IMG/VR virus record: IMGVR_UViG_3300032224_000591
Span: 1-64,000 of that record
DNA from: a virus
DNA length: 64,000 bases
Direction: 5' to 3' (one strand)
The translations under genes and the position numbers were made by a program. Positions within the stretch are counted from its first letter, which is position 1. Every line of letters starts with the position of its first letter. This document shows positions 14,987-17,083 of this stretch, piece by piece. A model generated the notes under the pieces. That model was not told the DNA's origin. It made no database searches and saw only the letters and a program-made list of their open reading frames with translations.

Positions 14987-15247
14987 ATGTTCATTGAAAT
15001 CGACGAAGAGCTTATCGACCGTATCATCAAGCAGCGCCTCGAGGAGGACTGGATCCATGCTAACAAGGAAGTCATGATCCTTGAGAGTGAGGATCGCCGT
15101 GGTGAACTCAAGCCTTATCAGCGTGAGGATCTTGAGATGTACCGTAGGCTAATTCCTGCAATGCGCATTATGGCTGCATGGCACTTCACAAAGCCCGAGC
15201 AGGAAGAAATCTTTGGTGTACAAGACGATGATGATGTGATAGAATAA
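14987..15247 (+). CDS. hypothetical protein
   Basis: 86-aa ORF with AAGGG RBS. Confidence 0.65.
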   Translation: MFIEIDEELIDRIIKQRLEEDWIHANKEVMILESEDRRGELKPYQREDLEMYRRLIPAMRIMAAWHFTKPEQEEIFGVQDDDDVIE

Positions 15248-15254: not shown

Positions 15255-15592
15255 TGCAAAGGTTGTTGATGCGTAAGGAATAGACGTTCTGGACCCGGGG
15301 GCGGTACCCGGCGCCTCCACCATAAACACACAGGGGTCAATATGTGGTATCTTGCTTGGGCTTGGTTTTCTAATTCATCACATATCAATGTGAGCCAACA
15401 TAGGAAGCATACTTCCCGGTATGAAGATTTGTGCATGTAGTGTGTTTATGATGGGGGCGAAATAGGTTCGACAGGATGCAGTAAAGGTACGAGTAGACCA
15501 ATGCAAACGTTAGATGCAAACGATAATGCACCTCTAGTTATGGCACTTGCTGCCTAACATGCGTCCGGGGGAACGTGGAAACAGAATCCCCC
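15255..15592 (+). ncRNA. ssrA: circularly permuted two-piece tmRNA, alphaproteobacterial type: acceptor piece ending CCA at 15322, intervening segment 15323-15452, coding piece from 15453, tag ANDNAPLVMALAA at 15516-15557
   Basis: GGACCCGGGGGCGGTACCCGGCGCCTCCACCA T-arm/3' end precedes the GGGGGCGAAATAGGTTCGAC 5' end; 7-bp acceptor stem with G3-U70; ANDN...ALAA tag; outer ends approximate. Confidence 0.92.
15342..15440 (+). CDS. 32-aa ORF inside the tmRNA intervening segment (MWYLAWAWFSNSSHINVSQHRKHTSRYEDLCM)
   Basis: AGGGG RBS 5 nt before the ATG; RBS plus ORF fill the loop closed by CATAAACACA/TGTGTTTATG. Confidence 0.55.
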   Translation: MWYLAWAWFSNSSHINVSQHRKHTSRYEDLCM

Positions 15593-15602
15593 ATCTATCT
15601 GT

Positions 15603-15679
15603 GGTCACTTAGCTCAGCTGGATAGAGCATCAGACTTCTAATCTGAGGGTCGATGGTTCGAGTCCATCAGTGATCGCCA
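15603..15679 (+). tRNA. tRNA-Arg(UCU)
   Basis: Cloverleaf GGTCACT...AGTGATC-G-CCA, D arm AGCTCAGCTGGATAGAGC, anticodon stem TCAGA-CT-TCT-AA-TCTGA, GGTTCGAGTCC T loop. Confidence 0.95.
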
Positions 15680-15718
15680 GCATATATAGTGAGTCCGAAA
15701 CTGACTGAAGGAGTCAAT

Positions 15719-17083
15719 ATGATTAAGCAACTGGCCGCAATCGGAATGGCCTTAACAACCTCTACAGTAGCTCTTGCTACTGATCTTCCGTCAAAGCGAG
15801 CAGCGCCGACATCAGCAAATTACATAAAGATTTGTGACGCGTATGGTGCAGGTTTCTTTGGTATTCCTGGAACTGACACTTGTATCAAGGTTGGTGGCAT
15901 GGTTCGTTATGATACGTTCTATTCGCCCTCTCAAGACCTATACAAGATCACTTCTGGTGCTAAGGCTGTAGCAACTAATAAGGCTACAGAGATGACATTG
16001 GGCAATGAGGTTCGTGGTCGTATCGACCTTGATGCTCGTACATCTACTGACTATGGTACGCTGCAGACCGTTGTGTCTTCACGTCTTGGTCGTACAAGTG
16101 GTGCACTTAACAGCGTGGCTGCTCCTACTGGTGCAACACAGTCTGGCACAACGACTACTCCTATTATGGAAGCTGCCTACATGCGTTGGGCTGGTTTCAC
16201 GGCAGGTATTGCACGTGACAACTTCCAGTATATGCCTGTTGTCACCTATACCGGCAACCAGCATTGGGCATCGTTCTCTAACGGTGCAAAACAGCTTGCC
16301 TACACTGCTGTAATTGGCGGTGGTCTGTCTGCAACGATCGCTATTCAGGATCCTACTGATACAGCGATCGCTCCTATTGGTGTAACTGCACTGTCTACTG
16401 TGTACTCTGTCAACCGCACTCCCCAGATCAACGGTCGTATCGACTTCGATCAGTCATGGGGCGGTGTTGCTGTAATGGGTGCAGCCCGTCAGGCTAATGG
16501 TATCGATCCAACTGGTGTTGCCTATGACAAGACTGCAAACGTCTGGGCTGCTGGTGCTGGTGCTAAGATCAATCTACCGTTCATTGCTGCTGGTGATGCA
16601 ATCTACTTCACTGCCAACTATGCAAACGGTATGACTGAGTACACATCGTCATATGGTTCGAACAAGGCTTCTGCAAACGTACAGCGCGATCTTGGTGGCT
16701 ATGTCATCAACCCGCCTAGCGTTGTGTATGGTGCTGCTGGTCTTGAACTTGTCAAGTCTTGGAACGTAGGCACTGCGCTTACTCATAACTGGTCTGACAA
16801 GTGGAAGTCTAACGTGTTCGCATCGTATGCTTCTATCACTGCTCCTGCTACATCTGCTGCACTTGTGTTTGATGGTAAAGCTGGCTTTGGTGATTCGAAG
16901 ACATGGAGTGCAGGCACTAACCTGACATTCAGCCCTGTCAAGGACTTTGACATCGGTGTTGAGGGTATCTACTCGAACATGAAGCAGGACGTTCGTTACA
17001 CGCTGGCTAGCTCGACAAATATCGTCACTAGTGAGTCAGTGAATAACTGGACTGCCCGCGCGCGAGTCGAACGCCGCTTCTGA
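15719..17083 (+). CDS. alphaproteobacterial outer-membrane porin (Omp2/RopA, Porin_2 family)
   Basis: Signal peptide, DLPSKRAAP, YIKICDAYGAGFFGIPGTDTCIKVGG signature, C-terminal RVERRF BAM signal; ATG at 15719 with GAAGGAG RBS. Confidence 0.9.
   Translation: MIKQLAAIGMALTTSTVALATDLPSKRAAPTSANYIKICDAYGAGFFGIPGTDTCIKVGGMVRYDTFYSPSQDLYKITSGAKAVATNKATEMTLGNEVRGRIDLDARTSTDYGTLQTVVSSRLGRTSGALNSVAAPTGATQSGTTTTPIMEAAYMRWAGFTAGIARDNFQYMPVVTYTGNQHWASFSNGAKQLAYTAVIGGGLSATIAIQDPTDTAIAPIGVTALSTVYSVNRTPQINGRIDFDQSWGGVAVMGAARQANGIDPTGVAYDKTANVWAAGAGAKINLPFIAAGDAIYFTANYANGMTEYTSSYGSNKASANVQRDLGGYVINPPSVVYGAAGLELVKSWNVGTALTHNWSDKWKSNVFASYASITAPATSAALVFDGKAGFGDSKTWSAGTNLTFSPVKDFDIGVEGIYSNMKQDVRYTLASSTNIVTSESVNNWTARARVERRF

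Follow-up and report, generated by a model that had tools for sequence, protein, structure and literature searches.

The locus described here raises the question of whether the processing spacer of a stable RNA gene can be a protein gene as well. The window (the whole stretch of DNA analysed, 64,000 nt) takes up the first 64 kb of a phage genome that is complete at 167,756 bp. This genome has terminal repeats and codes for 32 tRNAs and a major capsid protein of the T4 type. ARAGORN and Rfam show a permuted, alpha-type tmRNA at positions 15261–15595, followed by a tRNA-Arg. The intervening segment (IVS) between the two pieces of this tmRNA contains a 32-codon open reading frame. The IVS of tmRNA genes in aquatic T4-like phages is likely to be an exchangeable, stem-closed cargo slot, which holds here a real accessory peptide gene with a job unrelated to trans-translation.

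In itself, the tmRNA gene is an ordinary representative of the known two-piece kind. It scores 107.8 bits with RF04321 (cut-off 47) and 106.7 bits with RF01849 (cut-off 50). The acceptor piece is placed before the coding piece, there is a CCA end, and the tag frame ends in Ala-Ala-stop. Such genes are known from Alphaproteobacteria and aquatic T4-like phages, e.g. Methylophilales phage Melnitz, and it is established that the IVS is looped out and then released by RNase P and 3′ maturation (PMC9004378; PMC11915505). The window gene shares with them the gene order, the T-arm, the acceptor stem with its G3-U70 pair (alanine identity), an ANDN-type tag, which ARAGORN gives as 13 residues ending in LAA, and an IVS expected to be absent from the mature RNA. 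It differs in that the IVS is 130 nt long and protein-coding. The positions are shown in Table 1.

Table 1. Features of the tmRNA locus and its intervening segment (window positions).
Feature	Position	Strand	Remarks
Promoter-like site, sigma-70 type, 9/12, extended -10, upstream of the tmRNA gene	15217..15245	+	2 sites, against 1.6 in shuffled sequence; weak alone
tmRNA acceptor piece (T-arm, 3′ strand of acceptor stem; CCA 15320-15322)	15261..15322	+	ARAGORN, Rfam
IVS, 130 nt, probable exchangeable cassette	15323..15452	+	
Closing stem, 5′ arm, 11 bp, takes in CA of the CCA end	15321..15331	+	
Shine-Dalgarno-like AGGGG, predicted unpaired, directly 3′ of stem arm	15332..15336	+	
32-codon gene, YEDLC peptide family, hydrophobic N-terminal helix; ATG 15342, TAG 15438-15440	15342..15440	+	
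Conserved C-terminal 13-codon motif and stop	15399..15440	+	
Closing stem, 3′ arm, against the stop codon	15440..15450	+	
tmRNA coding piece, starts at G15453 (5′ strand of acceptor stem, G3-U70 pair; tag frame 15516-15557)	15453..15595	+	
tRNA-Arg(TCT), probably on the same transcript; position shared by relatives	15603..15679	+	

The initial annotation placed a 130-nt segment between the CCA end and the first G of the coding piece, and all of these coordinates hold; the AGGGG, the ATG, the 32 codons and the TAG against the 3′ arm are likewise borne out. The closing stem it described is present, but consists of 11 bp (15321–15331/15440–15450) and not 10. The Shine-Dalgarno (SD) sequence of the IVS frame (−6.5 kcal/mol) is stronger than 65% of the SDs of the long open reading frames in this phage. 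Its predicted probability of being unpaired is 0.89, and it is predicted to be exposed in the precursor and the released fragment alike; the AUG is predicted to be paired. When the loop is shuffled, an ATG open reading frame of at least 30 codons is found in 3.0% of the sequences, and one with its stop abutting the arm in 0.1%. There is no match to other Rfam families in the loop. The position of the promoter-like site corresponds to that of a promoter-like site in Melnitz.

The open reading frame is not a product of chance because homologues exist. The first full-length homologue, found in an unbiased search of 1.84 billion proteins, is a 33-aa sequence (52% identity, E-value = 4e-4). It belongs to another phage, where it is located among small open reading frames and has an SD of its own; a tmRNA is absent there. 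The family set was gathered by DNA scans with the back-translated motif and by a profile search, which shows 254 clusters, mostly 30–39 aa in length. The tail of the family is G-D-L-S-x-H-R-x-H-T-T-K-Y-E-D-L-C-(M/K/Q); the conserved YEDLCM end that had been predicted does exist. In the core motif H, R, Y, E and D are invariant, and L and C are present in 81 of 82; in the DNA scans residue invariance is there by construction, as they were built on the motif, but the codon degeneracy and the first homologue are independent of this. The invariant residues draw on their full range of codons, six for Arg and six for Leu, and each of the three stop codons is in use. The N-terminus is a variable amphipathic helix with a hydrophobic moment of 0.59 (0.32 shuffled). 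AlphaFold models, which are of low confidence (pLDDT about 63, pTM 0.24–0.26), display an N-terminal helix and an unstructured tail.

The family has no named counterpart in Pfam, PHROGs, NCBIfam, PDB, BFVD or the ESM Atlas, the best match being that of one family member to one PHROG (E-value = 0.19), and a Foldseek search of the peptide models against BFVD gave no match. The motif is absent from the papers searched. Exact-product and cluster look-ups show that the window peptide is not on record, and the pattern of its N-terminus has no metagenome match. No cellular homologues were found in a sample of 404 alphaproteobacterial genomes (401 + 3). A tblastn search of cultured phages and plasmids with a family member, of low sensitivity for a 31-aa query, gave only three chance matches (E-value = 4) and thus no cultured carrier of the complete motif. 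Longer homologues in which the motif continues through Gln look like stop read-through gene calls and are not counted as fusions. A mimic of MinE, with its amphipathic N-terminus and K-x-R-L helix, was rejected by profile comparison: five rhizobial MinE proteins are missing from the 36 matches (E-value up to 50) among 19,019 open reading frames. In a comparison with arrest leaders, the tail runs up to the stop in 118 of 119 proteins, yet the downstream genes are diverse. P0117 (L525:2501–2686) and P0118, downstream of regA, display the YEDLC tail fused to the Lys/Arg-rich cargo family of the L064 type. As it is fused to another cargo family, the tail appears to act as a module.

Copies of the family are mostly found outside tmRNA genes (105 of 111 distinct copies sampled). 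Of the non-tmRNA copies, 36 come after one 160-aa gene and 32 adjoin a 130-aa protein with no Pfam match, which we take to be holin-like. Many adjoin a lysozyme or membrane-protein gene, several preceding lysozyme, and others are beside regA, nrdB or greA-like genes. The six IVS copies are those of the window, L382 (a syntenic relative, five loci), L386 (a 354-kb jumbo phage), L425, L427 and L492, and L536 is a seventh IVS carrier. A homologous open reading frame that occupies the equivalent position of the IVS and stops at the closing arm is therefore present in syntenic as well as distant phages, as had been anticipated. The stop codon abuts or helps to form the closing stem in all six copies. 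The family appears to have entered the IVS repeatedly: a single origin is rejected (p-AU = 0.0057), and the six peptides are not one clade and require five changes, although the test has only 36 alignment columns and the well-supported branches require just two origins. In an unbiased scan 3 of 91 copies occupy an IVS, which is above the random-slot expectation.

Because entry was repeated and is commoner than for a random slot, a real coupling to the tmRNA has to be weighed. Placement in the IVS would tie synthesis of the peptide to tmRNA maturation, and the peptide would act on SmpB, rescue ribosomes or ClpXP, as the initial annotation had proposed, or its translation would control precursor folding in cis. 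Consistent with this, the seven IVS lineages have tmRNA backbones that are only 56%–80% identical, with different tags of alpha and, in one case, beta type; the rejection of one origin points the same way. The last codons of the open reading frame, together with its stop, make up the closing stem in L427 and L492, and smpB is absent from the phage genome, which relies on that of the host. However, 95% of the copies are elsewhere, the family gene of L183 is about 1.3 kb from the tmRNA and outside the IVS, at least 21 unrelated open reading frame families share the slot, and near-identical strains replace the whole insert and manage without the peptide. Such a coupling is therefore considered unlikely. 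The peptide is probably accessory and not a trans-translation factor, because 105 of 111 copies are outside tmRNA genes and near-identical strains carry other inserts.

Three minor observations concern these carriers and Melnitz. The 354-kb jumbo phage has an ARAGORN tRNA with the anticodon CUA (L386:2898–2971, also L406 and L407), a possible amber suppressor or sign of recoding. L492:11400–11560 is a permuted tmRNA-like gene that ARAGORN missed and whose coding piece is without a standard tag. The Melnitz IVS (L528:1538–1677, MZ577095.1) contains an unannotated open reading frame, equipped with an SD, whose homology is to the N-terminal portion of the peptide of L427; it has no YEDLC tail and continues into the coding piece.

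The IVS open reading frame of the window is a real gene under selection. Over its full length, dN/dS comes to 0.26 in the comparison with L382 and 0.33 in that with L374, and is thus below 1 with its nearest homologues, as the initial annotation had required of a gene. Changes at core sites affect 9 of 10 synonymous and 11 of 44 non-synonymous sites (Fisher p = 2e-4). Over the last 13 codons, compared with 100 family cores, 95% of the synonymous and 16% of the non-synonymous sites differ. The window copy is also the most deviant member of the family, with N where D/E is found in 82 of 82, weaker amphipathicity and a branch of 1.14, and because of this it may be under relaxed selection. This deviation would fit a silent or decaying passenger of a real family, the IVS being a tolerated insertion site whose RNA is quickly destroyed, as with the Coxiella 23S IVS, where the protein S23p is apparently not made in vivo and the IVS RNA is short-lived (PMC4990558). 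Decay is evident in some IVS copies, those of Melnitz, L186 and L536, which lack the motif or their own stop. Against this, constraint between IVS copies is strong in the core (dN/dS 0.07 for L382–L386, 0.06 for L425–L427), the window copy keeps every invariant residue despite saturated synonymous sites, and its SD is exposed and of normal strength. A passenger is quite unlikely. A reading of the segment as non-coding, whether structured RNA or random sequence, with an open reading frame that arose by chance, might be suggested by the non-coding inserts in many phage IVSs of 55–130 nt and by the 3% of shuffles, but has next to no probability: the folding of the loop is not unusual (z = −0.42), and the homologue set of 254 clusters, with protein-level conservation and free third positions, rules it out.

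The preferred reading of the IVS as an exchangeable cargo slot rests on comparison of phage tmRNA genes. The median IVS length is 86 nt in phages (160 distinct) and 29 nt in cells (118); cellular alpha IVSs are thus short, as had been stated. In 34 of 49 phage IVSs of at least 100 nt the segment is filled by a sense open reading frame, compared with 2.4 in shuffles (maximum 8) and 2 on the reverse strand; counted by family, this is 21 of 33. Cargo open reading frames other than the YEDLC family show a pN/pS of 0.13–0.37 in five of eight valid pairs, and the pair L064–L098 gives 1.03 on 10 changes (pairs L005–L059 and L005–L088 were mis-framed and left out of the cargo dN/dS). Six other cargo families are also found outside tmRNA genes. 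Among phage IVSs that reach 50 nt, 85%–95% have a closing stem of at least 7 bp, compared with 3%–5% when shuffled, and the median length of the stem in long IVSs is 11 bp whether they are filled by an open reading frame or non-coding.

Shorter IVSs mostly contain non-coding inserts, which recur across phages and have no Rfam match (ten loci scanned). One group has 86–87 nt (L004, L173, L185, L203, L204, L223, L245) and another 91–95 nt (L095, L248, L198, L182, L194). Further families are L020/L090/L094, L050/L161/L162 and L123/L149. Overall these inserts are 55–99 nt in length and are found with different tmRNA backbones. They are candidates for undescribed small structured RNAs.

The slot is exchanged at the level of strains. 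The relative that is closest by the neighbouring protein, at 90% identity, carries the same tag and an unrelated IVS of 82 nt. Strains from three independent studies are 96%–98% identical to the window over 420 bp upstream, with zero cover of its IVS; two of these hold a 55-nt insert of the L123/L149 family and the third another insert. The window tag is paired with seven IVS families, and one IVS family with four tags. Between the insert of the IVS of the relative L053 and an element that lies outside the window, at the head of the tRNA array of this genome (G000:C1:108262–108361; L535:1763–1862), identity reaches 98.75% across 80 nt, and the closing arms are shared. At L094:5390–5475, about 540 nt downstream of an intact tmRNA gene, there is an orphan cassette formed by a short duplicated acceptor end with CCA, the arms and an L079-type insert, a possible trace of cassette movement. 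From the strain swaps, the L053 match to the tRNA array and the orphan cassette it follows that cargo moves between strains and slots. The region G000:C1:108600–114000 also has many gene-free spacers of 100–225 nt between tRNAs, with no Rfam match above the cut-off.

The most likely mode of expression is as follows. Acceptor piece, IVS, coding piece and tRNA-Arg share one orientation downstream of the promoter-like site and, from what is known of two-piece tmRNAs, would form a single precursor transcript. The closing stem would loop out the cargo and so allow the acceptor stem to form; RNase P and 3′-end maturation would then free the cargo. Ribosomes would bind at the SD, predicted to be exposed, and the open reading frame would be translated, most likely on the nascent precursor. 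This is favored because, of 34 cargo open reading frames, 12 end only within the coding piece and another 10 end a single base upstream of it. The window frame is complete on the precursor and on the released fragment alike, and the released hairpin, as a complete mini-mRNA, may also be translated. The peptide gene would thereby take over the promoter and timing of the tmRNA. Exchange of cargo between strains, as seen above, may proceed by recombination in the near-invariant flanks. In RNA run X18 reads fall only on the conserved tmRNA and tRNA parts and are from other organisms.

A group of cargo open reading frames stops 13 nt inside the coding piece (L101, L228, L064, L098, L093, L202, L224, L005, L067, L016, L218), and cutting by RNase P would leave these as non-stop mRNAs. 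Others start 7 nt after the CCA without an SD (L104, L155, L114, L063, L205, L067) and would have almost no leader in the event of translation from the released fragment.

It is conceivable, though rather doubtful, that the spacer is a dedicated expression cassette, i.e. that a stable, hairpin-protected mini-mRNA or small RNA is freed by tRNA-processing enzymes in step with the tmRNA, and that the YEDLC gene was captured repeatedly as the dose and timing suit it. If so, the cargo open reading frames with a stop beyond the RNase P site, about a third, would give non-stop mRNAs tagged by the tmRNA from which they came, a built-in off-switch.

As to the peptide, the membrane association that the initial annotation had suggested is plausible for the family, given its N-terminal hydrophobic moment. 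The N-terminal helix might dock on the host inner membrane, and the invariant tail with His, His and Cys would be presented, late in infection, to a conserved target on the membrane side of the host. Tentatively, a peptide so placed may tune lysis or host physiology. A conserved host target is suggested because the family is widespread, its tail is invariant and it is absent from the 401 alphaproteobacterial genomes searched.

The nearest known case is the 23S rRNA IVS of Coxiella and Leptospira, which bears an open reading frame, S23p (PMC4990558). As in that case, a stem-closed segment with an open reading frame inside would be cut from a stable-RNA precursor without ligation and is sporadic among strains; the window IVS displays the complementary border arms and the sporadic presence in close strains. 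Unlike S23p, the host RNA is a tmRNA and not an rRNA, the window IVS is not in a 23S rRNA helix, its stem has 11 bp, and removal is expected by tRNA-processing enzymes and not RNase III. The tmRNA cargo consists of many unrelated small genes and RNAs and not one protein family, and it is under purifying selection, in contrast to the decaying S23p of Coxiella. An identity with the four-helix bundle of S23p was rejected, the peptide having 32 aa and no Pfam, NCBIfam or PDB match. In the tmRNA literature, PMC11915505 describes a tRNA-Ala in one tmRNA IVS and a repeat in another, and the word "ORF" is not in its text. The Melnitz record leaves its own IVS frame unannotated, and the word "intervening" is not in the Melnitz paper. 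No open reading frames in tmRNA IVSs are described in the literature searched; older papers (Keiler 2000; Sharkady 2004; Mao 2009) may mention them.

T4-like phages have small open reading frames and stable RNAs between tRNA genes, as in the T4 tRNA cluster. IVS cargo is similar in that tRNA-like processing sites flank it and the same enzymes would release it, and the cargo of a relative's IVS is nearly identical to the element that heads the tRNA array of this genome. It differs in lying between two halves of one RNA that pair across it, so that a closing stem is needed, and folding and translation of the cargo can be in competition.

The new findings comprise the YEDLC family, the repeated entry of this family into the IVS, the swap at strain level and the cargo shared with the tRNA array. 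A supposedly disposable processing spacer thus works as a hypervariable cassette that draws on the cargo pool of the tRNA array. Annotation of a tmRNA conceals its IVS and, with it, a class of phage genes under selection that lie within a stable-RNA gene; the cultured phage Melnitz is an example. The system defines a widespread family of 30–39-aa peptides of aquatic phages with an invariant tail, and with it the question whether a by-product of RNase P serves as an mRNA can be put directly to the test.

Lakes and other freshwater sites are the source of the sequencing runs that contain this region. The alpha-type tmRNA, together with an adjoining Porin_2 gene, suggests an alphaproteobacterial host. 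This gene, a phage-encoded alphaproteobacterial porin (E-value = 5e-45), is located at window positions 15689–17083, directly after the tRNA-Arg.
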